Position numbers and translations under genes: made by a program | Part shown: in pieces, positions 2,703 through 46,834 of the stretch | Numbering within the stretch: position 1 is the first letter of the stretch | Layout of the letters: each line of letters begins with the position of its first letter | The notes under the pieces: model-generated | What the model was told of the DNA's origin: nothing | Database searches by the model: none | Seen by the model: only the letters and a program-made list of their open reading frames with translations | Sequence record: PX853108.1 | From: a phage | Length of the DNA: 64,000 bases | Reading direction: 5' to 3' (one strand)

Positions 2703-3058
2703 GAGGAGGTTCCCCAGTAGTTGTAAGCATCACCTAAGTATTTACGCCATGCTTCTGGTAATAGCACGTTGCCAGTTACATTAATGAATTGGTATGGGTC
2801 TAAGTAATCATTACTCATGACTTTAAAGTCCCACTGTGGATTAGAAGATGCATAGGCAATGAAGCCCTCAATAAAGCCATAAATAGCACCCTCTTTGATA
2901 CGGTTACCATTGCCATCCTTTACCGGTATGGCAAAGCTATTGCCGTAATGACCATAGGCCATACCCCAGCGAGCACCGTGTTTCTTATAAGCTAATTTGG
3001 CAGCAGCATTAGTATGTTGCCCAAGTACATTGGTAGTGAATACTAAGATTTCTTTCAT
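2699..3058 (-). CDS. hypothetical early protein, possible small Rossmann-like fold
   Basis: 119 aa ORF in tightly packed minus-strand array; motif ILVFTTNVLGQHTNAAAKLAYKKHG; function unassigned. Confidence 0.45.
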   Translation of the reverse strand: MKEILVFTTNVLGQHTNAAAKLAYKKHGARWGMAYGHYGNSFAIPVKDGNGNRIKEGAIYGFIEGFIAYASSNPQWDFKVMSNDYLDPYQFINVTGNVLLPEAWRKYLGDAYNYWGTSS

Positions 3059-3255
3059 TTACATGCCTCTCTGTTGTAAGTATAAGCATCGTGTGTGGAC
3101 ATATTGTTATGATGACGAGTTACTTCTAAGTAAGTAAGAGCATATTCATGGTCACGTTGTTCTTTCTTGGTTCGGCAATGACCACATTTATCATCCCATT
3201 GGGATACATAGCCTTTACCACATTTGCATTGCTTATCCATTAGGATTCTCCACAA
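3055..3255 (-). CDS. Cys-rich zinc-ribbon-like small protein
   Basis: 66 aa; CxC and CxxC pairs (CKCGKG...CGHC); overlaps neighbours by 4 nt. Confidence 0.4.
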   Translation of the reverse strand: MWRILMDKQCKCGKGYVSQWDDKCGHCRTKKEQRDHEYALTYLEVTRHHNNMSTHDAYTYNREACK

Positions 3256-7504: not shown

Positions 7505-7960
7505 TAGACGAACGAAGTTCGTCAAAAATGTTTTATAAAGATGTAGGCGCGTGCGCAAGCCGAAGGCTTGCGTGCGTGCCGAAGATATGCACATAAGCCC
7601 ATGGGCTTGCTTGCAAGCCTAGTGTGTGTAACGTGTAAGGTGGGGTAGGGTAGTGGCTACACGGTCAACATACCGGGGGGGATGGTTGAGTGTAAGGGTG
7701 TAGCCCTAGGTGTAACACTATAGCCATACATAGCTATCACAATTTTGACATGCAAAAATATTATAGGCACTATCTCTATAAGCAGATAACTTTGAGGTAC
7801 TAACCTGAAAGATGGTTGAGGTATCTATCCTCTATTCATCATAGCGTTTGATACTTAAAACCTCATACAGCTTACCATTTACAAGTAATGGTCCTCCCAC
7901 TTCTATGAAAGCCAGACTGTGTACTATCACTGGTTCAGGTAAGCCCTTGACTGTTACATA
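7505..7960. other. non-coding, locally GC-rich, hairpin-dense region; candidate genome terminus / terminal-repeat or origin region
   Basis: No ORF; hairpins GACGAAC-GAA-GTTCGTC (7507-7523), GCAAGCC-GAA-GGCTTGC (7555-7571), AAGCCC-ATG-GGGCTT; G-run ccggggggg; sits just upstream of the outermost early promoter. Confidence 0.3.
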
Positions 7961-32223: not shown

Positions 32224-32283
32224 ACTGGCTTACTGTAGAGTAAGTTACCTATATACGATATAAGTTTGAATAGGAAACATGCT

Positions 32284-35200
32284 ATGTCAACATTTGACCG
32301 TCTGGCAGGTTTCGCAGACAGCATCACTAATGCTAAGCAAGTCGATGTCTCTACTGCAACCTCCCGGAAGCAAGCTGCACAGGGGCAAAGCCCTTTCCAA
32401 TTAACCCCAGATAATGCTTACAATCTACAGACTGGACGAGTAGGTAATCTTGGAATCGGTGCATACGAACCAGGTTCACTTCAGGCAGATTTCACTCAAG
32501 CCTCCCCCTTAGAAATCATTAATAAATATGGTAATGAGCAAGGTCTACAGATTCTTAATAGTCGAGCTAATGCTGCTGATGCTGTACGTCAGGACTTATC
32601 TAAACAACGTACTAACGCAGAAGCATTTGGCGATATCCTTTCTGGTGTTGGTCTTGGTGTTGCTAATACCCTTGGGGGCATTGCTGCTCTTGGCACAGGC
32701 TTGGTCAATGATAATGCCGGGGCATCCATTGCTTCCGGTCTTGACTGGTTGAATAAAGGTGTACACAACCTACAGTCCGATGCACTGAATGCTCGCCGTA
32801 ATGTAGTACAGAACCAGAACGTAATATCTGCACAGGAAAATGAGAAACTCTATAAGCAAGATATTGCTAAAGGAGAAAGCGAACTCGTTGCTTCCCTGTC
32901 TCGCATTGGTCGTGATGCTTACGATTCTGTTGCTAATACCCTGTCTAACGGCATGGCTGCTACTGATGGTATTGCTGAAGGTGTAGGTTCTCTGTTTACT
33001 GGTGGCCCATTAATCCGTGGTGTATCTGCACTCGGTAAGGTAATGGTAGGTGGAGATAAAGCTGTTAAGGGTATTACCTTAGCTGCTGAGTTAGGTTCAC
33101 GTCCTGCACGGATTGCACAGTCTGCTGGTCGTGTTGCTGCACCTGCTATAGCAATTGGTGGTATGGAAGCTGGTGGTGCATACCAACAGACTGCTAATGA
33201 AATTATGGAAATGCCATTCAGTGAACTGGCTGCTAAATCTCCAGTATACCAACAGCATATTAAAGATGGTTTATCTCCTGAAGAAGCACGTCGTCAGACT
33301 GCATCTGAAACAGGTATTACTGCTGCTGGCTTAACTGCTCCAGTTGCTGCTCTTACTGGTCCACTGGTATCCAAGTTTGAACTTAACCCACTCAAGGTAG
33401 GTTCACTGGCTGGTGCTGGTTCTAACATGCTGCGTGAGACTGTAGAAGAAGGTATCCAGTCTGGTACAAGTCAGTTCGCACAAAACACTGCAATCAAGGA
33501 AAATGTTGATGCATCTCGTGACATCCTCAAAGGTGTAGGCGAACAAACTGGTCTTGGTGCATTGTATGGCTTTGGTTCTGCTGGGGTTGCTCAAGCTCCT
33601 GGTGCAACTGTTAAGGCTGCTGGTGCTGCCGTTGGTCCTGCTGTACGTACTACCCTGGCTGGTGCTTCTTTGGCTGGTAAGGCACTAGCAAAAGTAGCCT
33701 CCCCTATTACTAACATCCTGGTTCAGCGTGGTGAAGAAGTAGCTAAACGTAACGAACAGGCATCTCCTGTATCTGATGCTACGGTTAATGCTGCTGCACA
33801 GGAAGCTACTGCTCAGGCAGAACAGGCCCAGGCAACCGTACAGGAAGCAGTAGATGCAATGGATATTTCTCCAGAAGAGAAAGCTGCTGCTACCCAGTAT
33901 GCTGCTGACTTAACTCAGGTAATGAAGTTTGATCCAGTAGAACTGGAACAAGCTAGCCCTACAGTCCGTGAAGCTGTTTCTGGTTCCACTAACCGTGTTG
34001 AAGCTATTCAGAAGATGGCTGACCTGGTTAATACTGCCGAAGACCCTAACGTTCAAATGGAAGCTGCAATCCAGATGTACGACAACATCATGTCTATGGA
34101 TAGCTTCATTAACCGTGACCCAGGTGCTCTGGCTAATCTGGAACAAGGCTCTCCTGCTGCTAATATCGTTGACCAATTCTCTGGCCTGATGGCTAACGTT
34201 CAGAATACACCGAAAGTACTTCGTGCATTCCGTGCTATTCATTCCATGATTCAGGAACAGGCAGAAGCAGGTAAACTGAAAGCTACTGAAGAAGCTAACC
34301 AAGCCCAGGCAAACAATATTGCCATGGCTGCTGATATGTCTCCAGAAGTACTGGATGCAGATTCAGTAAACATGGTTCTGAAACATGCAAGTGAAGGTAA
34401 GATTACACTGGGGAATCGTCAGCGTGCTGCCCTGCAATCTGCTGCTGCCTTGTTACAGGGTGCACGAGAATTTGACGCTAAAGCAGAAGAACTAGGCTTA
34501 CGTCCTCAAGACATTGTTAGTAAACAGATTAAAACCGACGAGTCTCGTTCTAATGAAGGCCAGTACTCTGCGTTGCAACATGCTAAACGCATTCGTTCTG
34601 CGTACAACTCTGGTAACTTCGATTTGGCTTCCGCTTATCTCGACGACTTTATGAAGTTCGCCCAGCACATGCAGAATAAGGTCGGAGCGTTGAATGAGCA
34701 TCTGATTTCTGGGAATGCGGATAAGAATAAGTCTGTCCATTATCAGGCTCTTACTCCCTCCCGTGAATGGGTACGTAGTCGTACTGGCCTCGGTGTCAAT
34801 CCGTATGATACCAAGTCTGTTAAGTTTGCCCAGCAAGTAGGACTGGAAGCCAAGACCGTAGCTGATATTGCTAACGCACTTGCTACGGCTTACCCGGAGC
34901 TTAATGTTTCTCATGTTAAGGTTACCCCATTGGATTCCCGTTTGGACAAGCCTGCTGCCCAAGTAGTTAAAGAGTTCCGTCAGGGCAATCTTGATGCTGC
35001 TCAATCCCAACAGACCAATGAACCAGTGAATCAGGTTGATGAATCTCCTGTTACAAAACAGGAACCAGTTACCCCTACTGTACAGACTAAACCCTCTGTT
35101 AGTGAAGCTGTTAAAACAGAACCTACTATTAAAGAGTCTAAACCACAGACTGCAAAAGAACCTGAGAACCAGTCTGAAAAACAGGATGCTGTTGAACAGC

Positions 35201-38200
35201 CTACTGAATCTGAAAGGGATGCTTATGTAAAAGAGAATACTATTTCTCAAGAAACTCTTAATAAGTATGGTGACCGTAGGGAGAGTCCTTGGCTATTTGC
35301 TGATGGTACTGTTGTTGGTTCCAATGGTGACCATATCAGCCTGTCTGATGTATTTGGTCATGATGGTTATCGTGACATGTCTTTGGATACTGGTGCTGTA
35401 CGTTCTACTTTCTACAAAGGAAGTGAGCAACCGTTCGTATCCCTGCAATTGTTTGATAATCAGAAGCTAACTGCTGAACAATTCAATACTGTTCAATCAT
35501 TCGTAGAAGCAAACAATGCACTGATTCAGATTGGTGTAGATACATCTGGGCTTAATACCAATAACGTTGAGAAAGAAGAAGTATCACTGGCTCAACTGAA
35601 AGCAGACTATACCGTTGGTGGTAAACCCCTATCTCAAATGGAAACAGTGTTCCCTGTCTATAACAATGAAAAGACATCGAACCAGTTCCTTAAAGCATTT
35701 TCTCTACCAGAGGAGCCTAAGTCTCGTACCATTGGTTCTGAATCTCCTTTGACTGATGTTAAGAAAGCACTGTCTTCTGCTGCCCGCTTTGAAGCATTCA
35801 CTCAAAAAGAAAATAACGCACTCACGAGTGATGTGATTAAGCGTTACCAGGATTTGTTTGATTTTGGTGAAACTTTGAAGACCACTCTGTCTGACCGTCT
35901 GGCTAAGTTCCTTGCTAACAAGAACGTTGGTAAACGTTTTGCAGAAGGTACTGAGGCTAACCGTTGGGTGGGTGGTAAGTTACTTAACATCGTAGAGAAA
36001 GATGGTGATACCTTTAAGTTCAACGACCAGTTGTTAGAGACTGCTGTACTTGCAGGTTTGCAATGGCGACTAACTGCTACACAGAATGCTGCTGTTAAAG
36101 ACATGAAAGACGTAGCTGCTATTACTGGTGTGGAAGCATCTCTGCTACCAGAAGGTATCCTCGCAGAGTTTGAGAATGCTCAAACCTTAGTAGAGGCTAC
36201 TAACTCACTGGCTCAGAAGATTGAATCCTATTGGGGGCTTAATCGTAATGCTGATGCACCATTGGGTTATACCAAGGGTATCCCAATGGCAATGGCTACA
36301 GAGATTCTGTCTTCTCTCATTGAGATGGGTGAAGTTAAAGAGTCCATGCTGGATGTGTCTGAGATTGACCCAGAATCTAATAAGACCGTTGGTTTGTATA
36401 CCATTGAGAAGTTAGATGATAACGATGCCATTAATAAATTCCCTACTGCTATTGAGGAAGCAGTCCTTCTAGAACCAGTAGAGAAATTGTACTTGGGTGA
36501 TGATATTCCTTCAGTGGCTCAAACTCAGTTACGTAACCCGGCTGTCAAGAATACCCCGGAACAGAAAGCTGCTCTTAAAGCAGAACAGGCTACTGAGTTC
36601 CGTGTACACATGCCCATGGTTAACTTCTATGAAGCATTGGGTCGTGACAACATTCTGGAATTGATGGGTGCTGGTGCTCTTAACCCAGAATTGCTGAATG
36701 TGAATACTGCTAAATCTCTGGAAGGTAAAAACCTGTCCGTGTCTATGGCATATGATTCCTTGTTTGGTGTTATCAATCAGATTAAGGAACAGGAGAATGG
36801 ACTGGATACACCTATTCACTATGGTTACAACATGACCCGTGTAGGTCGTATGCAGATGCTTGGTAAAAATAACCCACAATCCAGTAAGCTGGTCCGTGAA
36901 GCAATCTTACCAACCTTCTCTACCATCGACTTGAGCAATGAAAACAGTCAAACGTTCTCCGATTTCCAGTTAGGTCTGGCTCAGGCATTGGGCATCAAAG
37001 TTCATAAAATGTCTCGCGAAGTTATGTCAGATGAACTGACTAAAGCTCTGGAAGGTAAACTGAAACCTGCCGTTGATATGATGGTTGAGTTTGATAAGTC
37101 TGGACACTTACCTACTGATGCAGTGGATATTCTGAAGACCTCTTTGGGTAATGATAAATCATTTGTAGCTCTCATGGCTCTTATGGAATATGCCCGTTAC
37201 CTTAACAGTGATGACCGTGCCAACTTTAATACCCCACTGTACGTTGAAGCTGATGGTGTAACCAACGGACCAATCAACGCAATGGTATTAATGACTGGTG
37301 GTAAGTTCACCCCAGACTGGATTAAGAATACTGCTAAAGGTGGCTTGTTCTTCGGTAAAGCTGGCAAGACTATGAACGAGCATCATTCGCACGAGGACAG
37401 TGTTGACCTGTATGAAGCATCCACTAATGGTCTGCAACAAGCACTGAATGAATTACGTAGTACTTACCGTAACAACGTTCCTGTTATGAACCAGATGAAC
37501 CATCTCCAGAAATTAATGGACCTGTTCATTAAAGATTTCAATCTTAAGGAAGATGGTACTCTGGACCTGAAACGTGGTATTGCGAAAAACCCACTGACCA
37601 TTACCATTTATGGTTCTGGTGCTCGTGGTATTGCTGGCAAGATGGTTAGTGCAATTACTGATACCATCTACGAACGCTTCAGTGACGTTCTACAAGCTCG
37701 TGCTGCTGACCCTAGCATTTCACCAGCTATGGCTATGTTTGGTAAGGAGGCTGCGTCTGAGGCTGATGCTCAGGCTATGCTGGATACTTTCCTTACTTCT
37801 ATGGAAGCATTGACTGGCAATGTTCCGGTTATGCGTAAAGGTGAGTTGTCTATTCAGCAGGTAGAAGGTGCTCTGACCGGTAAATTAGACCCTCAGAAGT
37901 TTACTGTATCAGGCAATGCTCTGAAGAATTTACAAGAGAACATGCTTCACTTGTTCGTTGAACCAATGCGTACTGGTATCCGAAATACTGTTGGCGAAGG
38001 TTTGATGTACTCTACTGAGAATTTGCAGAAGGCTACCCAGATTCAGTCTCTGGTATTGCAGGATATGTTCCAACAGGCAGTACAGGCTAAGCTGGCAGAA
38101 AAAGAAAAAGACCCAACATGGAAGAAAGGTGATTTCTTAACACAGAAAGAACTGAATGAAATCCAGAATAGCTTAGCTCCACTGGCTCCAATGATTGAGA

Positions 38201-41200
38201 CTGGTTCACAGACTTTCTACATTGCTGGTAGTGAGAATACTGATGTTGCTAACCAAGTATTGGCTACTAACTTAGATGACCGTATGCGTGTACCAATGAG
38301 CATCTATGCTCCTTCACAGGCAGGCGTTGCAGGTATTCCGTTTATGACCATCGGTACTGGTGATGGCATGATGATGCAGACCCTTTCTACTATGAAAGGT
38401 GCTCCGAAGAATACCCTGAAAATCTTTGATGGTATGAACATTGGTATCAACGATATCACCGATGCAAGCCGTAAAGCTAATGAGGCTGTATATACTTCCT
38501 GGCAGGGTAACCCTATCAAGAATGTTTATGATTCCTTTGCTAAGTTCATGAAGAATGTAGACTTCAGTAAACTGTCTGATGAAACCAAACAGGCTATCGC
38601 TAAGTCTGCTCTGGAGTATGACCAGCGTGAGGGTGCTACCGATGACCTGTTACGTGTTGGTGCTGAACAGATTGAACGTAACCTGCGTAACATTGCTTTG
38701 GGTGTAGATATTCGTCACAAGGTAATGGACCAGGTACAGGTCACCGTTGACCAGATGGCTGCTGTTGGTGCTCCTTACGTGAACAACGGTAAAATCTCTC
38801 TGGAAGGTCTGACTGTAGACCAGCAAGTAGCTAAGCTGAACGAACTGTTTGATGCTGAATTAAACAAACGTCGTGATGCAGTTCGTGCTGCTAAAGCAGA
38901 ACCAGTGAAAGAAGTACCGGCTATGGAGAAGGTTGGTCGTGTACTGAAGTCTGGTGTACGTCTGTTGTCTAATACTGCCATTACTAAGCTGGCTAAAGAG
39001 ATGTCTCCTGAACAGCAAGCAGTATTGAAAGAAATACAGAAATCCCTCGCTGCTAAAGACTATAAGGTTGTTTACGGTACACCTGCTCAACTGGATGCTT
39101 ATGCTATTGAGAAGAATATTACTCGCCCAGCACCGGAAGATATTGAAGCTGCTGAAGCTGGTAATGCATATGGCTGGACTAACTTTGAAGATAAGACCAT
39201 CTACTTAGTTACCCCTTCCTTAGAGACTCTGGTTCATGAATTGGTACATGCTACTACTTTTGAATCTGTACTGGCTCATTATGAGGGTACTCCTAATGAA
39301 GCAGTACAGAATATTGAAGACCTGATGAACCAGTTCCTTACTCTGGATGTTAAGGATGAATCTCCGGCTGTACGTGAAGCGTATGCCGATGCACTGAATA
39401 CCATTAATGGTCATTTGTCTAATGGCTTCATTGAACCCGCAATGGCTAAAGCTGCTGCATTGAACGAGTACATGGCTTGGGGTTTAACCAACCGTGAACT
39501 GATTAGCAAGCAGAAGAAAACTACTGCACTTAAAACTATGGTTCAGGCTGTATATGAAGCAATCAAACGTCTGGTATTTGGACGTAAGAAAGCTCCAGCT
39601 AATGCAGATGATATGTTCTCTGGCTTACTGTTTAACTCTGCTGTAGTAATGCGTGGGCAAGCTCCTACTGCTGCTGTAGCTAAAGACACTACTCTGTTCC
39701 ATAACAAAGCATATGGTGACAATACTCGTCTGGAAGAGTTAGGTAAGACCTTTGATAAACTGATTACTGACTACATTGGTTCAGAACCAGTACAGCAAGT
39801 AATTCGTAAAGGTAAATTCTCTGATGCAGTAGTGAATGCAACTAAAGTAACCCGTGATGTTCAGGCTCATGGCTTCACCATGAATATGCAGGAACAACGC
39901 CTCTTCACTAACATTGTTGCTGCATTGGCTACTGAGGCTGCTATTAACCCTGCTGCTCTTGCTCGTGCACAGGAATACTACACGCATGTTACTAAAAACC
40001 TGACTGTTGAAGCATTTATGGCTGACCCTGATAGTACTAACCCTGCTGACCGTTATTATGCACAGCAGAAGTTCGATACTATCATGGGTGCTAACAACAT
40101 TGAGTTTGATGCACAAGGTCGTTCTTCCTTACTGCCTACCTTTGTTGGTCTGGCTATGGTAAGTGAAGAAGTACGTAAGGTTCTGGCTGATATTCCTGTT
40201 ATGAAAGCAGATAAGAAATCAGGCAATACTGTTGACGCAATGCTGACTAACATTGGTACTGCTGCAATGGCTAGCCTGAATGCTCGTGTAGCAGGTGATA
40301 CTAAAGCCACTAACGTACAGGAAGGTATGGATGCACTGGCTCAGACAATCATGCAGACCAGTCTTAATGCAGAATCCTTCTATGATTCCGTTGCTACCCC
40401 TACTGGTAATGCTATCGACCGTGCTAACCAGTATCTGGTGGATTCTATTGATGTACTGTCTACCCGTGCTTTGGAAGGTGCTCGTGAAGTTGCAGCTAAT
40501 ACCAAGAACCCGTTGGTTAAAGGTGCTGCTCATGCTGCACAATTGGTAGCTGCTATTGCTACAGAGAAGAATGGTGCAATCGTAGCCGAAGGTGTTATGG
40601 CTGCAATGAACCAGGGTAAAGTATGGCAACCCTTCCATGACCTGGTTAATGACATAATCGGACGTACTAAGAGCAATGCTTCTGTATACGATTTGATTAA
40701 AGCAGTTCGTGCACAGGTACAGGCTGACCGTCAACAGTTCCGTGAACACTTGCCTACCACTATCGCATCCAAGTTCAGCCGTAAGCTGACTAATGATGAG
40801 TGGAAAGCAATGCATACAGGTATGGGTAAAACTGACTTAGCTGTTCTGCGTGACACTATGTCTCTGGATGAAATCCGTGACCTGCTGTCTGACCAAAAGA
40901 TTGTTGACCGTGAGGTTAATAAACTGGAAGCAGATTTGCAGAAACAAGCAGGACGTAACTGGCCTCTGATTAGTCGTAAATCTAAGCAACTGGCTCAGTA
41001 CATGATTAATGGTACGGTTGGTAATAACCTGTTGCGTAATGCTACTGCAATTTCTCGTTTACTGGGTGAACGTAAGACTACACGTTCTGTTGTAGATGTA
41101 GCTCAACTGGATAAACTCATTACCCTGTATGCACTGGAAGCAATGAATAAAACTGACCGTGAGATGTTATCTTCACTGGCTCAGACAGAAATTGAAGGTA

Positions 41201-43038
41201 TGGACTTTGCTACTTCTTACCTGGTTGGTCAGCGTAAAGATGAAATGGCTAAAGCTAAGTCTGATAGTCGTGCAACCCTGAACCAGTACAAAGGGTATAT
41301 TCCTGGTGAGAACAAACAGGGTGTTAACCTGATTGTTGCTGAAGATAGTCAGTTTGCTGATTTGATTGAGAAATCCTATGTACGACTGGGTACTTATCAG
41401 GGTAGCTCTGCTAATCGTGGTCCAGCACGTAGTTACTACTTTGCACCGGTACAGGCACAGGCTCCATTCTCACAAGGTATCCTACAGAACGTTCGCAATA
41501 CTGCTGGTGGCGTAGACCTTGGCACAGGCTTTACGATGGGAACCATGGTAGCTGGTCGTATTACTGACAAGCCTTCTGTAGACCGTATCACTAAAGCACT
41601 GGCTCGTGGTGAACGCGGTAATGAACCACTGCTGCCTGTATATGATGCCAATGGTAATGTGGTTGCTTACGAGCAATCCATTGACCCTAACATGCTGAAG
41701 CACATCGAAGGTGAGAACCATCTTGCTCGTGCAATTGGTGTATGGCGTGGTCGTCAGGTGGAAGAAGCTAAGGCTCAGCGTTTCAACGATATGCTGATTG
41801 AGAACCTGCATAGCATGTACGAGAACGACATTAAGATGTCTGCTTCTAATAAGTCCCAGTACGTTAACCTTCTTGGTTCGAAACTGGACCCAGTAACTGC
41901 CGATGCTCTTAAACTGATGAACAGTGAAACTCGTCAGAAAGCAGAAAGTCTGTTTGGACCGGGTGAGTTGTGGGTACGTCGTGACATGCTCAACGATGCA
42001 CTGGGTTATCGTGCAGCTTCTGTTGGTGATGCCTGGTCTGGTAATTCTCGTTGGTCCCCAGAAACACTAGATACCTTCAAGAAAGCTATGCTGGGTGTCT
42101 TTGGAAACCGTGCTTATAAGTACGTAATGGGTGGTGAGAATCTGGTTCAAAACTTAGTTAAAGAAGCCAAGACTCTGATTGTAGTTAAGTCAGTAGTCGT
42201 ACCTGCTGTTAACTTCCTGGCTAACCTTTACCAGATGGTTGCTCGTGGTGTACCTGTTAAGAACATTGCTAAGAGCATCCCACAGAAAACTGCTGAGATT
42301 AATCAGTATCTGAAATCTCGCCTGCGTCAGGTAGATGCAGAAGCAGAATTACGTGCAGCTACTAACCCTAACCAGATTCGTAAGCTGAAGGCTGAGATTC
42401 AGTCCATCACGGATAGCCATAAGCGTTTGAGTATCTGGCCTCTGTTAGAAGCTGGTGAGTTTTCTTCAATTGCAGATGCTGGTATTGGACGTGATGACAT
42501 CCTGATTACTGAAGGTAAACTTCACGAATACATGGAAAAGCTGGCTGATAAGTTGCCTAAGTCTGTACGTAATGCTGGTCGTTATGCACTTATCACTAAG
42601 GATACTGCTCTCTTCCAGGGTATCCAGAAGACGGTTGAGTACTCTGACTTTATTGCTAAAGCAATCATCTATGATGAACTGACTCAGCGTAAAGGTAAGA
42701 CCCGAGAAGAAGCACTCGGACGTGTAACGGAAGAGTTCATTAACTATGACCGTTTGCCTGGCCGTTTCCGTGGGTATATGGAAAGTGTTGGTCTGATGTG
42801 GTTCTACAACTTTAAGATTCGTTCTGCAAAAGTTGCAGTGTCCATGATTCGTAACAACCCAGTACATGCTGCTATGGCTATGTTGGCTCCAACTCCTACC
42901 ATGTTTGGTAACGTTGGTCTGCCTATTAAGGACAACATCTTTAGTATTGCTGCACAGGGCAACCTCGGTTACTCCTTCGGATTCGGTATGGGCTTACGTG
43001 CCCATACCCTGAACCCGTGGCTCAACCTCACTAACTAA
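32284..43038 (+). CDS. giant virion-encapsidated RNA polymerase (vRNAP)
   Basis: 3584 aa from ATG 32284 (RBS AGGAAA; track start 32266); central T7-like motifs A EADGVTNGPINAM (near 37245), B LKRGIAKNPLTITIYGSG (near 37560), C KIFDGMNIGI (near 38417). Confidence 0.85.
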   Translation: MSTFDRLAGFADSITNAKQVDVSTATSRKQAAQGQSPFQLTPDNAYNLQTGRVGNLGIGAYEPGSLQADFTQASPLEIINKYGNEQGLQILNSRANAADAVRQDLSKQRTNAEAFGDILSGVGLGVANTLGGIAALGTGLVNDNAGASIASGLDWLNKGVHNLQSDALNARRNVVQNQNVISAQENEKLYKQDIAKGESELVASLSRIGRDAYDSVANTLSNGMAATDGIAEGVGSLFTGGPLIRGVSALGKVMVGGDKAVKGITLAAELGSRPARIAQSAGRVAAPAIAIGGMEAGGAYQQTANEIMEMPFSELAAKSPVYQQHIKDGLSPEEARRQTASETGITAAGLTAPVAALTGPLVSKFELNPLKVGSLAGAGSNMLRETVEEGIQSGTSQFAQNTAIKENVDASRDILKGVGEQTGLGALYGFGSAGVAQAPGATVKAAGAAVGPAVRTTLAGASLAGKALAKVASPITNILVQRGEEVAKRNEQASPVSDATVNAAAQEATAQAEQAQATVQEAVDAMDISPEEKAAATQYAADLTQVMKFDPVELEQASPTVREAVSGSTNRVEAIQKMADLVNTAEDPNVQMEAAIQMYDNIMSMDSFINRDPGALANLEQGSPAANIVDQFSGLMANVQNTPKVLRAFRAIHSMIQEQAEAGKLKATEEANQAQANNIAMAADMSPEVLDADSVNMVLKHASEGKITLGNRQRAALQSAAALLQGAREFDAKAEELGLRPQDIVSKQIKTDESRSNEGQYSALQHAKRIRSAYNSGNFDLASAYLDDFMKFAQHMQNKVGALNEHLISGNADKNKSVHYQALTPSREWVRSRTGLGVNPYDTKSVKFAQQVGLEAKTVADIANALATAYPELNVSHVKVTPLDSRLDKPAAQVVKEFRQGNLDAAQSQQTNEPVNQVDESPVTKQEPVTPTVQTKPSVSEAVKTEPTIKESKPQTAKEPENQSEKQDAVEQPTESERDAYVKENTISQETLNKYGDRRESPWLFADGTVVGSNGDHISLSDVFGHDGYRDMSLDTGAVRSTFYKGSEQPFVSLQLFDNQKLTAEQFNTVQSFVEANNALIQIGVDTSGLNTNNVEKEEVSLAQLKADYTVGGKPLSQMETVFPVYNNEKTSNQFLKAFSLPEEPKSRTIGSESPLTDVKKALSSAARFEAFTQKENNALTSDVIKRYQDLFDFGETLKTTLSDRLAKFLANKNVGKRFAEGTEANRWVGGKLLNIVEKDGDTFKFNDQLLETAVLAGLQWRLTATQNAAVKDMKDVAAITGVEASLLPEGILAEFENAQTLVEATNSLAQKIESYWGLNRNADAPLGYTKGIPMAMATEILSSLIEMGEVKESMLDVSEIDPESNKTVGLYTIEKLDDNDAINKFPTAIEEAVLLEPVEKLYLGDDIPSVAQTQLRNPAVKNTPEQKAALKAEQATEFRVHMPMVNFYEALGRDNILELMGAGALNPELLNVNTAKSLEGKNLSVSMAYDSLFGVINQIKEQENGLDTPIHYGYNMTRVGRMQMLGKNNPQSSKLVREAILPTFSTIDLSNENSQTFSDFQLGLAQALGIKVHKMSREVMSDELTKALEGKLKPAVDMMVEFDKSGHLPTDAVDILKTSLGNDKSFVALMALMEYARYLNSDDRANFNTPLYVEADGVTNGPINAMVLMTGGKFTPDWIKNTAKGGLFFGKAGKTMNEHHSHEDSVDLYEASTNGLQQALNELRSTYRNNVPVMNQMNHLQKLMDLFIKDFNLKEDGTLDLKRGIAKNPLTITIYGSGARGIAGKMVSAITDTIYERFSDVLQARAADPSISPAMAMFGKEAASEADAQAMLDTFLTSMEALTGNVPVMRKGELSIQQVEGALTGKLDPQKFTVSGNALKNLQENMLHLFVEPMRTGIRNTVGEGLMYSTENLQKATQIQSLVLQDMFQQAVQAKLAEKEKDPTWKKGDFLTQKELNEIQNSLAPLAPMIETGSQTFYIAGSENTDVANQVLATNLDDRMRVPMSIYAPSQAGVAGIPFMTIGTGDGMMMQTLSTMKGAPKNTLKIFDGMNIGINDITDASRKANEAVYTSWQGNPIKNVYDSFAKFMKNVDFSKLSDETKQAIAKSALEYDQREGATDDLLRVGAEQIERNLRNIALGVDIRHKVMDQVQVTVDQMAAVGAPYVNNGKISLEGLTVDQQVAKLNELFDAELNKRRDAVRAAKAEPVKEVPAMEKVGRVLKSGVRLLSNTAITKLAKEMSPEQQAVLKEIQKSLAAKDYKVVYGTPAQLDAYAIEKNITRPAPEDIEAAEAGNAYGWTNFEDKTIYLVTPSLETLVHELVHATTFESVLAHYEGTPNEAVQNIEDLMNQFLTLDVKDESPAVREAYADALNTINGHLSNGFIEPAMAKAAALNEYMAWGLTNRELISKQKKTTALKTMVQAVYEAIKRLVFGRKKAPANADDMFSGLLFNSAVVMRGQAPTAAVAKDTTLFHNKAYGDNTRLEELGKTFDKLITDYIGSEPVQQVIRKGKFSDAVVNATKVTRDVQAHGFTMNMQEQRLFTNIVAALATEAAINPAALARAQEYYTHVTKNLTVEAFMADPDSTNPADRYYAQQKFDTIMGANNIEFDAQGRSSLLPTFVGLAMVSEEVRKVLADIPVMKADKKSGNTVDAMLTNIGTAAMASLNARVAGDTKATNVQEGMDALAQTIMQTSLNAESFYDSVATPTGNAIDRANQYLVDSIDVLSTRALEGAREVAANTKNPLVKGAAHAAQLVAAIATEKNGAIVAEGVMAAMNQGKVWQPFHDLVNDIIGRTKSNASVYDLIKAVRAQVQADRQQFREHLPTTIASKFSRKLTNDEWKAMHTGMGKTDLAVLRDTMSLDEIRDLLSDQKIVDREVNKLEADLQKQAGRNWPLISRKSKQLAQYMINGTVGNNLLRNATAISRLLGERKTTRSVVDVAQLDKLITLYALEAMNKTDREMLSSLAQTEIEGMDFATSYLVGQRKDEMAKAKSDSRATLNQYKGYIPGENKQGVNLIVAEDSQFADLIEKSYVRLGTYQGSSANRGPARSYYFAPVQAQAPFSQGILQNVRNTAGGVDLGTGFTMGTMVAGRITDKPSVDRITKALARGERGNEPLLPVYDANGNVVAYEQSIDPNMLKHIEGENHLARAIGVWRGRQVEEAKAQRFNDMLIENLHSMYENDIKMSASNKSQYVNLLGSKLDPVTADALKLMNSETRQKAESLFGPGELWVRRDMLNDALGYRAASVGDAWSGNSRWSPETLDTFKKAMLGVFGNRAYKYVMGGENLVQNLVKEAKTLIVVKSVVVPAVNFLANLYQMVARGVPVKNIAKSIPQKTAEINQYLKSRLRQVDAEAELRAATNPNQIRKLKAEIQSITDSHKRLSIWPLLEAGEFSSIADAGIGRDDILITEGKLHEYMEKLADKLPKSVRNAGRYALITKDTALFQGIQKTVEYSDFIAKAIIYDELTQRKGKTREEALGRVTEEFINYDRLPGRFRGYMESVGLMWFYNFKIRSAKVAVSMIRNNPVHAAMAMLAPTPTMFGNVGLPIKDNIFSIAAQGNLGYSFGFGMGLRAHTLNPWLNLTN

Positions 43039-43851: not shown

Positions 43852-43985
43852 AGAGTGGTTTGAGTTTGTACTTAAACATGACTGCGTTGTTATAGGCTAC
43901 GCTACCTGCAAATACCAAGTATTTATGTCCTCGATTATCCGTTACCTCATAGGCATACGGGGTAGAGATTAGGTCAATCATAACT

Positions 43986-44261
43986 TCAGCTTAGTGTTGT
44001 TGATTTAACATAGGTTTCCCGGAATATATCCGGTTTACAAGGATATAACTCCCCATGTATGCCCTGGATAATATAGTCATTAGGTGAAGCAGTTAAGATA
44101 CCCTCCAAGGTTCTAATACATAATTTACTATCATTCCCAGAGAACCAGACTACCCCATTACGAAGGGCATCTACTATCCAAGCTGGTTCTTTGTTCAGAT
44201 TAAGACTTCCGTCCCATTGAAAAGCTTCAATCTCAACAGGTTTTTTACGATATTTAGCCAT
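43986..44261 (-). CDS. hypothetical protein (91 aa after start trimming)
   Basis: Trimmed to ATG 44261 with RBS AGGAGA. Confidence 0.4.
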   Translation of the reverse strand: MAKYRKKPVEIEAFQWDGSLNLNKEPAWIVDALRNGVVWFSGNDSKLCIRTLEGILTASPNDYIIQGIHGELYPCKPDIFRETYVKSTTLS

Positions 44262-44278
44262 AGTATTTCTCCTACTTT

Positions 44279-44308
44279 CAAATAAAAAAGTCCCTCCGAA
44301 GAGGGACT
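44279..44308 (-). terminator. rho-independent terminator (minus strand), UUCG tetraloop
   Basis: AGUCCCUC-UUCG-GAGGGACU followed by UUUUUUAUUU. Confidence 0.6.
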
Positions 44309-44565
44309 TAGTAGCTTTAACGCAGCTAACGAGGCTTGTATGAGTGCTAGGATTTGTAACTCCCAGCATATCCCCACCGTTTTAGCTGACGGCAAACAGA
44401 GATTGATAGTCTCAGAGGATACTTTACTCAGGCGAGTATTATAGTCTACTCATACTCACACTACCCTAACGGGTAGTATGTTTGCAATACCTAGAGTGCC
44501 GGACTGTCTCACCGGCATTGTCTTTAGAGTGCAATGCAATCAGGACTATGTTCTCTATTAATGAG

Positions 44566-44638
44566 TACCCACTACTGGATTTGAACCAGTGACCTTCCGA
44601 TTATTAGTCGGTTGCTTTCCCCGTCTAAGCTAAGTGGG
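44566..44638 (-). tRNA. tRNA-like gene, canonical cloverleaf; anticodon reads AAU by hand (Ile-type, unusual A34)
   Basis: Acceptor GCCCACT/AGTGGGT, D-arm GCTT...AAGC, anticodon arm ACCGA-CUAAUAA-UCGGA, T-arm ACTGG-TTCAAAT-CCAGT; folded by hand only. Confidence 0.55.
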
Positions 44639-44643
44639 CATAA

Positions 44644-44719
44644 ATGGTTACCCGGACAGGATTCGAACCTGTGTCCTAGTTGGTTTACTAGTGGGGCTTT
44701 ACCACTAAGCCTACCGGGT
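44644..44719 (-). tRNA. tRNA-like gene with encoded CCA and non-canonical anticodon loop (6 or 8 nt)
   Basis: Acceptor TACCCGG/CCGGGTA, D-arm GGCT...AGCC, T-arm ACAGG-TTCGAAT-CCTGT, then A-CCA; anticodon region CTAGT-AAACCA-ACTAG does not give a 7-nt loop. Confidence 0.45.
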
Positions 44720-45304
44720 ATTAATGAGTGAGTCACGCCAGACTTTAACTGGCTCCTTCTTCGCAATCCTTACATACCCCTACATAATTATTGCGTTAAG
44801 CTTTTTTGTTTAAGTTTAAGTGAAGGCGTTCTTGCTGACTCATAATAGGTTGGGCGTTTGACGAATGACTAGTTCGTTACTACCCGTTTGCCATAAGTAC
44901 CTGGCGACTTTGGTTTGAGGTGGGAGTCCGAGTCCTGTACAGCCTTACCGTTCACACATTGGCAGCGTATCTAGAATAGCACTTCCGGCAACTGGATTTA
45001 ACTGTTACACCTCAAATCTGGTAGGGGCGTCCAGAAGTCTCATCTGGTACTTACGCCGTCGTATGGTTACGACTTACCCCCATAATCTTTCTAATTCAGA
45101 GTAGCACTGCTCCACGTTTGGCCTTTGAACTCCGGGATGGATTAGTGCAATGCTACTTTGAATTAGTTGTCAGGGATTCCACCTGGCTCCATCTGTTTTT
45201 ATAGTCACTCAGATATCGTCTGGACTCTTTACTATGGGACTCACCGGCTACTTAGAGTAACTACGGTAAATATTATTCCACAGCTTACATTGATGTCGCA
45301 TCCC

Positions 45305-45388
45305 ATCAAAGAGTACACTAGCACTGGGCCACGCATAAGTGGGCATCGGCCTTCCTCCCACAGCTAATCTACTAATGTACTCATTGAT
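45305..45388. repeat. element R1: 84-bp unit bounded by 14-bp imperfect inverted repeats
   Basis: Left end ATCAAAGAGTACAC, right end ATGTACTCATTGAT (12/14 match as reverse complement); internal hairpins. Confidence 0.5.
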
Positions 45389-45560
45389 TGGCCCCCCGTT
45401 TCTAATACATGGACGGGGGAACTCCACGGTCGTTTGATAATCAGGACGACTCACTCCTGACTGACGCTTGGCTTATTAGGCTGCCATCAGAACAACATCA
45501 TCGTTTGCATTTATGTTATTGGTTCGTTTCTAAAAAACCGCATAATCGCTTACGAAAACT

Positions 45561-45661
45561 ATCAAAGAGTACACTAAGCACAGGTAGCTATCCTGCCGTC
45601 TTCTCCACCTACACCGGCTACAGTGTAAACCTCCGCACGTTAGCTTAATGTACTCATTGAT
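45561..45661. repeat. element R2: 101-bp unit with the same terminal inverted repeats as R1
   Basis: Identical 14-bp termini to R1, different internal sequence. Confidence 0.5.
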
Positions 45662-46393
45662 AGGATGTCATAATAGGGGAGGGAGGACGAGTCCCTCTTT
45701 ACCCTATGATTTAGTTTGCATGTAAGACCTAACAATTCGATGCTGTAGGTAGCTATGCTATCCGACATTTAACCCAGCCCATATAGGGGCTTATGTGATT
45801 AAAATGCTCAACATTGAGCGGTTAGTTGATAAGGGATCTGAAGCCTTATCCCAAAGATACTAACCTTTGGGATATAGCCTAAGATTCAGAAATGGCCCCT
45901 ATAGGGAGAGGCCATTGATTAACCCGAATGTTGCTTTACCTTTTATGTGATAACCCATTCTTAAAATAGTCTAGCTGACGGATGGGGGGCCACCCCTAGC
46001 GTCAGTGCCATACGGCAAAGATTAAGTTAAGAAAGGTTATGATAGGAGTTCCTATCTCAAAGGATTCTAACAGAACCCTTCACGATATTAACTACTCAAC
46101 GTGAAATTCTTTGATTCCCTCGACAGGTTCTACACCCCAGGAAAAAGCTAACTTTTCCATTTAATTTTGATTGAACCAATGGACTGGGGAGAGTATTCCA
46201 ATCCACTGGTTCGGTTGTTGTTGTTACTCTGGCGGCTTGTCACCACCGTTTTTATCACTGAGTTTCCAAAGTATAAGCACAGTGATGATAAATGCTATGT
46301 ATGGAGCCGACACGTCCAGAATCCTGATAAGCAATAGCATCAGAATTACGAACACTACCACAAATAGCAGCAGCTTCTGAGCCACCTACCAGA

Positions 46394-46834
46394 TTAACTA
46401 CGTTTAAGGCCAGCGAACAGTGAAGGCTTAGTAGCAGGTTTCTCTGCTGGTTCTTCAGCCTTAACTTCTTCCTGCACAACTTCTTCTTGTGCTTCTGGTT
46501 CAGTCACTGCTTCTTCTTTAGGTTCCGGCGTAGAACTCTCGTTCTGACCACCAGTAGAGGTCTGGGTTTCTTCTACCTTTACCTCTTCAACTACTTCTTC
46601 CGGCTCTGATTCTACTGGACGGTGTTTAGCTTCTTGTGGGTTCTTACGAGAACGACGAGTTTTCTTCTCTACTCCCACGGGTGGGGTATCTTCGTGAACC
46701 TCTTCGTTGATGCCTACGGAGGCTGTACCATCTGCATTGATGACAATATTAACGTCACCAGCAAGATTGATTTGATCATCGACATAAGCCTGTACAGCAG
46801 CTTCTACTTCGGACTGGTTCAAAATGATTTGCAT
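46394..46834 (-). CDS. acidic low-complexity protein
   Basis: 146 aa; E/V/K-rich C-terminal half. Confidence 0.45.
   Translation of the reverse strand: MQIILNQSEVEAAVQAYVDDQINLAGDVNIVINADGTASVGINEEVHEDTPPVGVEKKTRRSRKNPQEAKHRPVESEPEEVVEEVKVEETQTSTGGQNESSTPEPKEEAVTEPEAQEEVVQEEVKAEEPAEKPATKPSLFAGLKRS

Follow-up and report, generated by a model that had tools for sequence, protein, structure and literature searches.

What does a phage do with two transfer RNA (tRNA) genes that stand side by side and each carry an anticodon loop out of the ordinary? The question is raised by sequence record PX853108.1, a 64,000-nucleotide stretch of phage DNA that we analysed at its full length and call the window below, in which a preliminary description made from the letters alone had noted two tandem tRNA-like genes on the minus strand at 44554-44735. 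Phage tRNA genes are at present viewed as weapons in a contest over the host tRNA pool, yet the GenBank labels for this pair are inconsistent (Ile, Xle, OTHER, Undet, Leu, Gln, Thr or none), and in the literature we found the two genes listed in genome reports, with no analysis of their nature. The listing is what was already known; the nature of both genes is what is new. The first gene, tRNA1, is best read from its sequence as a genuine decoding tRNA that reads AUU independently of TilS, and it is a new variant of phage tRNA-Ile. The second, tRNA2, we conclude to be a non-decoding L-shaped tRNA mimic whose fold appears to be under selection, and it seems to belong to a previously unrecognised family of such mimics. 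Taken together with the linker that separates them and the RNA island in which they lie, this forms a combined explanation that we consider probable, with real room for doubt, and its weakest part is the cellular role of tRNA2.

The window belongs to a G7C/N4-like podovirus of the genus Gamaleyavirus (Schitoviridae) and contains a 3590-amino-acid open reading frame (ORF) for the virion RNA polymerase at 32266-43038. In the whole of it ARAGORN finds two tRNA genes, both at this locus, calling one tRNA-Ile(aat) (44565-44639) and the other 'tRNA-???' with a 2-nt anticodon (44645-44720). The Rfam tRNA model (RF00005, gathering score 29) scores 64.8 bits at 44566-44639 and 42.0 bits at 44648-44720, so that both genes pass the covariance-model threshold proposed as a check in the preliminary description, and its claim of two minus-strand tRNA-like genes is borne out. 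Matches to the tRNA-pair region, patchy and of 80-99% identity, occur in 149 GenBank phage records, most of them from Escherichia Gamaleyavirus, and both genes are accessory, tRNA1 being present in 36 and tRNA2 in 24 of these records. The features of the locus are as follows.

44566..44639, minus strand: tRNA1, a tRNA-Ile(AAU) according to ARAGORN, an Rfam score of 64.8 bits, covariation and outgroups with a CAU anticodon.
44640..44644, minus strand: AU spacer UUUAU, 5 nt, between the CCA of tRNA2 and G1 of tRNA1.
44645..44720, minus strand: tRNA2, a predicted L-shaped tRNA mimic, on the basis of the ARAGORN 'tRNA-???' call, an Rfam score of 42 bits, a minimum-free-energy cloverleaf and covariation.
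44720..44733, minus strand: upstream linker copy, sense ACUCACUCAUUAAU, which abuts the 5' end of tRNA2, its last base being U1 of that gene.
44553..44565, minus strand: downstream linker copy, sense CUCAUUAAUAGAG, the 3' trailer of tRNA1, consisting of a corrupted CCA (CUC) and an AU-rich spacer.

The anticodon loop of tRNA1 around 44607-44597 reads CUAAUAA (C32-U33-A34-A35-U36-A37-A38), just as the preliminary description had folded it, with the anticodon AAU and its unusual A34; the loop has 7 nt, and U33 and the purine at 37 are those of canonical elongators. All 36 records with tRNA1 are at least 95.7% identical, and each of the 11 distinct Gamaleyavirus variants carries CUAAUAA, A34 being fixed. 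When these 11 variants are compared with three outgroup genes, 96.4% of the cloverleaf cells are paired and 8 of the 21 pairs have changed on both sides; none of 500 shuffles equals this covariation, and slid controls collapse. The stems of 7, 4, 5 and 5 bp upheld by this covariation are those of a canonical elongator cloverleaf.

The outgroups also point to where tRNA1 came from. The nearest genes outside the genus are those of the Enterobacter phage EcP1 (Schitoviridae), the T4-like Aeromonas phage AS-yj and the Yersinia phage TG1, all of which have the arm ACCGA-CUCAUAA-UCGGU, the anticodon CAU and an encoded CCA and are annotated as tRNA-Met. Like E. coli ileX and the T4 tRNA-Ile, these CAU genes are taken to be of the lysidine-dependent tRNA-Ile2 type. 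Because its nearest relatives are these CAU genes, tRNA1 appears by its sequence to be a tRNA-Ile2 lineage in which C34 has changed to A and U43 to A. It has in common with tRNA-Ile2 (CAU) the anticodon stem-loop except positions 34 and 43, the UUCAAAU T loop and the isoleucine identity elements; it differs in having A34 in place of C34, on which TilS cannot act, and in not encoding CCA. The E. coli isoleucine identity set, reportedly worked out by Nureki et al. in 1994, is said to consist of A73, C4-G69, U12-A23, C29-G41, A35, U36, A37 and A38, and tRNA1 shows every one of these elements and departs from the set at position 34; one variant (L019) has U29-A41. In place of the G34 or lysidine-34 of the E. 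coli isoleucyl-tRNA synthetase (IleRS) set, all 11 variants have A34.

How such a tRNA would decode can be judged from an orthogonal tRNA with the same CU-NNN-AA loop, for which the AAU anticodon in E. coli carried no inosine and gave reading of 4.5% at AUU, 0.43% at AUC and 0.27% at AUG, with AUA below detection (PMC11066159). By these values an AAU tRNA in E. coli reads AUU about 10:1 over AUC, and tRNA1, in distinction from tRNA-Ile2, is expected to read AUU and not AUA (PMC11066159). Among the isoleucine codons of the window's 52 long ORFs, AUU makes up 61% (34.7 per 1000 codons), AUC 28% and AUA 11%. Our preferred reading is a candidate working isoleucine tRNA with an unmodified A34, which would be a Watson-Crick reader of AUU with little reading of AUC and no detectable reading of AUA, and which the change from C34 to A34 would have freed from dependence on TilS. 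Its 3' trailer is CUCAUUAAU, and, its own CCA being corrupted, it would need host 3' processing and the host CCA-adding enzyme for its maturation.

It has to be asked here whether A34 might instead be deaminated to inosine, in which case tRNA1 would read AUU, AUC and AUA like the eukaryotic tRNA-Ile(IAU) and would have restored the AUA reading of its tRNA-Ile2 ancestor. The loop equals that of tRNA-Arg2 at positions 32, 33, 34, 37 and 38, and AUA, at the share given above, is somewhat commoner in the phage. Against this stands the E. coli AAU tRNA itself, which in the same loop context had no inosine and no AUA reading above detection, and from which its authors derive a very high specificity of TadA for the ACG loop (PMC11066159). 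The possibility that the phage supplies its own TadA- or CDA-like deaminase was also rejected, as a tblastn search with E. coli TadA and a scan of the ORFs for the motif H/CAE...PCxxC found none in the 64-kb window, beyond which about 8 kb of the genome lie. We regard inosine at this position as very improbable. A second case of A34 is annotated in the related phages Bp4 and ECBP1, where the genes at 2632-2711 and 3002-3074 are called 'tRNA-Cys(ACA)', with A34 like tRNA1 and a pseudogene flag from tRNAscan, and 'tRNA-Ala(CGC)'; both are absent from the window, which has other cassettes at those positions, and their annotation varies among records.

A different view accepts that tRNA1 decodes AUU and disputes the reason, holding that it is mainly a nuclease-resistant spare that sustains AUU decoding when the host tRNA-Ile(GAU) is attacked, codon supply not being its main purpose. 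PARIS, a retron and other tRNA nucleases are countered by phage tRNAs in which the anticodon loop or the body is altered (PMC10264068, PMC11464382, PMC11555353), and toxins specific for tRNA-Ile(GAU), namely CdiA-CT of EC3006 and of Kp342, occur in the enterobacteria E. coli and Klebsiella (PMC9086364). In addition, tRNA1 is unlike the host tRNA-Ile in anticodon and acceptor stem, and it is accessory, as is usual for counter-defence genes. The CdiA toxins are however interbacterial weapons, we know of no anti-phage system directed against tRNA-Ile, and the enrichment of AUU suffices by itself for an explanation by supply. We judge the spare-tRNA role possible but somewhat doubtful; the two roles are compatible with each other.

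For tRNA2 the question of decoding has the opposite answer. Its anticodon arm at 44691-44676 can be written as CUAGU-AAACCA-ACUAG or, with a 4-bp stem and an 8-nt loop, as CUAG-UAAACCAA-CUAG, so the preliminary description was right that no canonical 7-nt loop forms there, as it was in stating that one gene of the pair encodes its CCA, which is that of tRNA2 (44647-44645). The minimum-free-energy fold is nevertheless a cloverleaf, and the molecule has the elbow nucleotides of a tRNA-like fold: U8, G18-G19, the UUCGAAU T loop and R15-Y48. The suggestion that the two genes could be decoding tRNAs with unusual properties or tRNA-like regulatory RNAs is in this way divided between them, tRNA1 behaving as a decoder with an unusual A34 and tRNA2 as a structurally selected RNA incapable of canonical decoding; a 7-nt loop with U33 is lacking in tRNA2, and the 'anticodon' given by ARAGORN has 2 nt. 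In GenBank it is named tRNA-OTHER or Undet, Leu (in KP8), Gln, Thr (in ST4) or not at all (PMC11927229, PMC6950046).

Eleven distinct sequences of tRNA2 are found in five phage groups from three families, and they fall into three deep lineages:

Lineage 1: Gamaleyavirus, with the loop UAAACCAA or UAAACUAA.
Lineage 2: SABI-like Schitoviridae (AACUUAAGA) and the 147-kb Stephanstirmvirinae phage 05F01 (GACUUAAGA).
Lineage 3: KP8-like Schitoviridae and the 137-kb Vequintavirinae phage NDO71, both with CAGGCAUG.

This distribution apparently includes transfers between phage families. The family always lies within tRNA clusters, a few nucleotides 3' of a genuine tRNA, and tRNA2 is precisely missing in Bp4 and ECBP1. 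The Enterobacter phage SonariX (a 249-kb 'partial genome') has an Asn-Asp-Tyr-Gln-tRNA2 cluster identical, neighbours included, to that of the 76-kb phage SABI from the same host; SonariX may be an assembly composite, and its copy was not counted as an independent occurrence.

Evidence that the fold matters comes from the pattern of change in the stems. Because a MAFFT alignment misregistered the anticodon stem, pairs were counted by explicit structural parsing of the 11 sequences, over 17 pairs of the acceptor stem, the anticodon position and the T stem. Standard pairs make up 96.3% of the cells and 3.7% are unpaired; 8 of the 17 pairs have changed on both sides, and none of 1000 shuffles equals this. 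At the tertiary 15-48 pair, 7 of 9 sequences have G-C or A-U, and a switch between these two forms has occurred twice independently. C3-G70 is invariant, and the alanine determinant G3.U70 is absent. Overall, tRNA2 has diverged (72-80%) just as far as the bona fide tRNA-Asn and tRNA-Gln of the same genomes have, and its divergence is unevenly distributed: between lineages the 3' 28 nt are identical at 24-28 positions and the 5' 21 nt at 17-19, with about 50% in the middle.

These data bear directly on the possibility that tRNA2 is a functionless pseudogene in decay, its anticodon loop damaged by an indel and the remainder not yet eroded. Broken and chimeric tRNA genes do occur in the island, such as one in L025 (8466-8549) with mismatched 5' and 3' acceptor strands; tRNA2 is missing from most relatives; and its CCA, which 8 of the 11 sequences encode, has degenerated into AUCA, AUUA or CUCC in some Gamaleyavirus copies (E20, SP5M, ST4, L116), which fits weak selection and a partial relaxation there. 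A decaying gene accumulates uncompensated random substitutions, however, and the stem changes of tRNA2 are compensated, to the extent given above, with 15-48 co-varying twice; the gene moreover persists in five phage groups of three families, and all three deep lineages retain an intact hairpin at the anticodon-arm position. We find it unlikely that tRNA2 is a pseudogene, although this is an objection of some weight.

Could the hairpin still decode through an expanded loop, as a quadruplet reader or +1 frameshift suppressor would? An 8-nt anticodon loop is the hallmark of classical frameshift-suppressor tRNAs, and the 9-nt loop of the SABI type includes CUUAAGA, on its own a canonical 7-nt loop. 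The loops are, however, 8, 9 and 8 nt in the three lineages (UAAACCAA, AACUUAAGA and CAGGCAUG) and unrelated between them; U33 is missing in two of the three, those of Gamaleyavirus and KP8; and a frameshift suppressor's combination of 8-nt loop, U33, 3' purine and conserved extended anticodon is not found. The loops can also be closed further, to 6 nt or, in KP8, to a GGCA tetraloop on a 7-bp hairpin, and the anticodon helix stands off the canonical register, with connectors of 2-3 nt. An expanded-loop decoder seems to us extremely improbable, and we return to the non-decoding mimic.

Nor does anything show that the sequence of the loop matters, since within sub-lineages it is conserved no better than the rest of the molecule. 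The identity of the KP8 and NDO71 loops and the near-identity of those of SABI and 05F01 (1 of 9 positions differing) were considered as signs of loop function and discarded, not being above chance at about 14% divergence. An antisense or kissing partner was looked for as well, and the sense strand in the neighbourhood of the island has no UUGGUUUA, the complement of the loop. Neither an ancestor with a canonical loop nor a copy in a chromosome came to light: a pattern scan of the genomes of 185,579 bacterial and archaeal species found no family member and 6 unrelated matches, none enterobacterial; a scan of metagenome contigs returned the forms already known and no canonical-loop ancestor; and exact-pattern scans of IMG/VR gave few loci.

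If the fold is what selection sees, the acceptor stem, the T arm, the D loop and mostly the CCA would be the selected parts, and the anticodon arm would need only to be a hairpin with a loop of 8-9 nt that has no U33. Because conservation is concentrated in the acceptor, T-arm and elbow half of the molecule, tRNA2 would act through this 'top half', which is the half of a tRNA recognised by RNase P, the CCA-adding enzyme, EF-Tu and several tRNA-directed toxins. We infer that it is excised by the tRNA-processing machinery, by RNase P at the 5' end and by exonuclease trimming to the CCA at the 3' end. Because tRNA2 is accessory and mobile between unrelated phages of related hosts, we favour for it the role of a competitor or decoy, directed at some host factor whose target on a tRNA is the body or the CCA end; our second choice would be that it serves the array purely as a module for processing or stability.

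The pair had also been described as bracketed by near-identical motifs suggestive of processing or promoter signals. A motif ATTAATGAGT is indeed present at 44557-44566 and 44720-44729; of the two longer copies reported, the first, ATTAATGAGTAC, lies exactly at 44557-44568, and the second, ATTAATGAGTGAGT, is at 44720-44733 and not at 44719-44732. As a signal the bracket is weak by itself: direct repeats of 10 nt within 200 nt of each other occur at 58 positions in the window, and significance of the flanking 10-mer as such was ruled out on this ground. Copies of ATYAATGAGTAC with 0-1 mismatch are clustered all the same, all but one of them lying within 44557-45661, on both strands, and none of 100 shuffles equals their total count; the density of the linker core is 4.4 per kb in the island and 1.3 per kb elsewhere.

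What the motif represents is suggested by its variation. The trailer of tRNA1 has an intact CCA in SP5M (an A followed by CCAATT) and elsewhere reads CCCATT, CTCATT, CTTATT or TCCATT, and every cassette junction of the island bears a linker of the same kind, running up to the junction as ...CCYATTAT, ...TCATTAAT or ...ACCATTTAT, or reading ...CCCATTCAG. Other cassettes, lying as far as 1.1 kb upstream of the tRNA pair, are closed by stems made of inverted copies, and because of these copies the motif is not specific to the pair; from its sequence we take it to be an inter-cassette linker made of a CCA-like triplet and an AU-rich spacer. A processing signal is compatible with a linker at every junction, and nothing supports a promoter. 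The linker would then provide the microhomology across which cassettes come and go. Exchange of cassettes precisely at motif-bearing junctions, and the presence of the motif in both orientations, could also be expected of a DNA site recognised by a protein, whether it served site-specific recombination, homing or, as a phage promoter, transcription. Such a site is quite unlikely in our estimation: the island has no recombinase or endonuclease gene, the drift among the five junction forms tracks a degenerating CCA, and the inverted copies pair as RNA stems with favourable folding.

The explanation of pair, linker and island builds on folds, covariation, ancestry, cassette polymorphism and codon usage, which can be observed directly. 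That the two RNAs are expressed and processed, that IleRS charges tRNA1, and what tRNA2 does in the cell are inferred. A number of facts weigh against the explanation, and the decoy role has no direct support. Being accessory among the related records, neither tRNA1 nor tRNA2 is essential. In tRNA1 the pair 27-43 is the one position that is regularly unpaired, as A.A in every Gamaleyavirus copy. For tRNA2 there are the decayed CCA ends and their implied relaxation, the unexceptional conservation of the loop, and the obvious tRNA pseudogenes and chimeras of the same islands, which raise the prior for decay. The enrichment of the linker is modest when a loose pattern is used (6 observed, 2.6 expected), and 115 of 2000 shuffles equal it.

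The setting of the pair is wider than first described, as both genes belong to a modular island of about 1.8 kb that holds no ORF longer than 80 amino acids and lies on the same strand as the flanking replication genes. Its parts are these.

44288..46091, minus strand: modular ORF-free RNA island of about 1.8 kb with the tRNA pair, delimited by a promoter and terminator scan.
46064-46091, minus strand: putative sigma70-type extended -10 promoter, TTAATA-16-TGtTAGAAT, at the start of the island.
45553..45668, minus strand: hairpin cassette whose closing stem pairs the motif with its inverted copy (AUCAAUGAGUAC ... GUACUCUUUGAU), fold z = -3.6.
45424..45559, minus strand: tmRNA-like tag-template RNA (see below), with its tag ORF running from 45508 to 45473 and encoding ANDDVVLMAA before two stops.
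45298..45396, minus strand: second hairpin cassette with the same inverted motif pair, fold z = -2.0.
44912..45036, minus strand: structured RNA module of about 110 nt, with 29 pairs in RNAalifold, 11 of them with compensatory change.
44309-44288, minus strand: strong intrinsic terminator at the end of the island.

The promoter-like site is invariant in four aligned Gamaleyavirus genomes; N4 and KP8-like phages have other sigma70-like sites upstream of the first tRNA. Aligned with PBM-3, Bp4 and ECBP1, the island consists of near-invariant blocks with 1-nt indels and of cassettes that are present or absent. Tandem placement of tRNA1 and tRNA2 would accordingly be that of adjacent cassettes in a co-transcribed, ORF-free RNA island. 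Two conserved anchors enclose a slot that is filled, depending on the phage, by tRNA1 alone, by tRNA2 with tRNA1, by a gene with the body of tRNA1 and a 33-nt insert for an anticodon arm (pSb-1), by hairpin cassettes, or by up to four cassettes, and where the window has the 45298-45396 hairpin, Bp4, ECBP1 and PBM-3 have other, tRNA-like genes. The closing inverted repeat CUAUCAAUGAGUAC / GUACUCUUUGAUAG is conserved around unrelated inserts of 50-80 nt in PBM-3, L025, L028 and L032, so the insert within the conserved hairpin stem is apparently a hypervariable cassette. Island blocks are 88-99% identical to those of N4 and KP8-like phages, although for the RuvC-like protein encoded next to them identity is no higher than 68-69%. 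Small ORFs in the island (one of 68 amino acids at 45454-45248 and one of 64 amino acids across the tRNAs) were dismissed as genes: they run across the borders of cassettes and lack conservation, and 1-nt indels occur in the blocks.

The 44912-45036 module has 98.9% identity to N4 over 89 nt and occurs in 68 phage records, including myoviruses of 150-160 kb where it lies beside tRNA-Gln; it has no match in Rfam. A search of 43900-46600 against Rfam, at the gathering threshold and with E up to 5, gave only tRNA, a weak transfer-messenger RNA (tmRNA), STnc100 and chance matches, with none to GOLLD, ROOL or YrlA in the island. The STnc100 match, to a gammaproteobacterial small RNA, is itself weak (44278-44485, minus strand, 24 bits against a gathering score of 47, E = 0.017) and covers the last module and the terminator. 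The adjacent block 44552-44501 is 83-90% identical in N4 and KP8-like phages. Between a 146-amino-acid gene and the island, in a region 80-88% conserved across genera, a 53-amino-acid ORF with a hydrophobic stretch (46224-46385, minus strand) is probably a real gene for a small membrane protein, because it is conserved across genera and annotated as a small coding sequence in relatives.

Other tRNA derivatives occur in related clusters. In the Shigella phage pSb-1 a tRNA1-like body has its anticodon arm replaced by an insert of about 33 nt, and a tRNA-Ile(GAU)-like body in a KP8-like phage (L028, 7901-7990) has the same insert in the same place; their shared sequence is CAGGA(A/G)AGCUUCGA(G/A)AGAACAAGGUG(U/C)CUG, and with these genes we seem to have a further type of tRNA derivative that does not decode. 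Cassettes in L031 (7945-8019), in N4 (7751-7817 and 7820-7930) and in NDO71 (1580-1690) combine an aberrant middle with an acceptor stem, a T arm of the form GGUUCGAxUCC and an encoded CCA, and in one of them the anticodon arm has given way to a 6-bp hairpin with an ACAG tetraloop. 'Top-half' tRNA mimics seem to be common in phage tRNA clusters.

Of the remaining cassettes the tag template deserves separate treatment. Its tag reads AUAAAU-GCA-AAC-GAU-GAU-GUU-GUU-CUG-AUG-GCA-GCC-UAA-UAA in the window and shows what is expected of a tmRNA tag, namely a resume-codon context and a short tag ORF with a hydrophobic-Ala-Ala end and a stop. Homologs of the 190-nt block 45578-45388 are present in 399 phage records of many families, P1 included, and 657 of 5426 complete E. 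coli genomes have the template, for the most part on plasmids of P1 size and in no case annotated; no description of it was found in the literature searched. In every family sampled (N4-like, P1, FelixO1-like, Mooglevirus, Vi1-like and small siphoviruses) the frame has exactly 10 codons, beginning with AN(D/E/N) and ending in (A/V)A before the stop, as in ANEEAYLMVA, ANDDLMMVAA (P1), ANDNAFRVAA and ANDNVFLAVA, and the two terminal alanine codons vary at third positions only. An alignment of nine copies supports 20 pairs, 10 of them with compensatory change, and has the stop codons within the loop of a hairpin; a pseudoknot downstream, judged by eye, shows covariation from family to family. The phages Sf17, EcSzw-2 and Bas79 give the template its own near-consensus sigma70 promoter. 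The Rfam model tmRNA_permuted aligns at the tag region with 33.4 bits, below its gathering score of 47; no tRNA-like domain was detected in the template, and ARAGORN makes no tmRNA call. We considered whether tRNA2 or another cassette might be its alanine-accepting partner, and inspection by eye found none with both G3.U70 and CCA among the neighbouring cassettes examined. The template is moreover present without tRNA2 in P1, Sf17, Bas79 and Bp4, which counts against a partner role of tRNA2, and we found no link between template and tRNA pair beyond shared residence in the island.

If these readings are true, tRNA1 offers a natural and experimentally tractable E. coli example of a tRNA with an unmodified A34, a class hardly found elsewhere in nature, and a case of a tRNA-Ile2 lineage escaping dependence on lysidine. 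tRNA2 would stand for a conserved, mobile family of tRNA mimics that have abandoned decoding, and would point to a function of the tRNA body during infection, be it as a decoy, a processing handle or something else. N4-family phages would keep a modular array of conserved structured RNAs that gene calling skips or fills with spurious small ORFs, and the tag template, being widespread in phages, P1-like plasmids and prophages, would make the interplay of phages with ribosome rescue directly testable. One may go further and suppose that N4-like and many other enterobacterial phages carry an RNA-only toolkit against host translation and tRNA surveillance, in which the A34 tRNA-Ile, the decoy mimics and the tag template are three new RNA classes of one array and tRNA2 or a cassette like it might even provide, in trans, the tRNA-like function missing from the template. 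We put this forward as speculation that is unlikely to hold as a whole.

Comparison with known systems places each of these RNAs next to a familiar one. Like tRNA1, the bacterial tRNA-Arg(ACG), read as ICG, and the rare tRNAs with unmodified A34 have a genome-encoded wobble adenosine; an AAU anticodon with isoleucine identity is, in contrast, no TadA substrate in E. coli, so that the A34 of tRNA1 should stay unmodified. The phage tRNAs that evade defence, those of mycobacteriophages, the T5 tRNA-Lys against PARIS and the tRNA-Tyr against retron Eco7, are likewise accessory, clustered and atypical in their anticodon loops (PMC10264068, PMC11464382, PMC11555353). They still decode, however, as tRNA2 is unable to do, and neither tRNA1 nor tRNA2 has a known counterpart among defence systems.

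Established tRNA mimics such as the Y RNA YrlA, the tRNA-like domain of tmRNA, mascRNA and the tRNA-like structures of plant viruses resemble tRNA2 in having an L-shaped module of acceptor, T arm and D loop without a functional anticodon; tRNA2 has no Rfam match to YrlA or its kin, lacks G3.U70 and forms a complete, free-standing 76-nt cloverleaf instead of part of some larger molecule. The tag template resembles tmRNA (SsrA, the phage-encoded and the permuted forms) in the AUAAAU before the GCA resume codon, the 10-codon AN..(A/V)A tag, the stop codons within a hairpin loop and the downstream pseudoknot. It differs from tmRNA in its sub-threshold Rfam score and want of a detectable tRNA-like domain, and in starting, in several phages, about 50 nt before the tag at a promoter of its own.

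For the island as a whole the nearest parallel is the tRNA operon of T4, likened here by description only, which is also a phage cluster of true tRNAs and small structured RNAs, its RNAC and RNAD lying in the T4 tRNA region and depending on RNase P. These two RNAs are described as having 'yet unknown functions' (PMC9697503). The island of the N4 family differs from the T4 cluster in being modular, with turnover of cassettes and a shared linker, and in containing cloverleaf mimics without an anticodon and a tag template.

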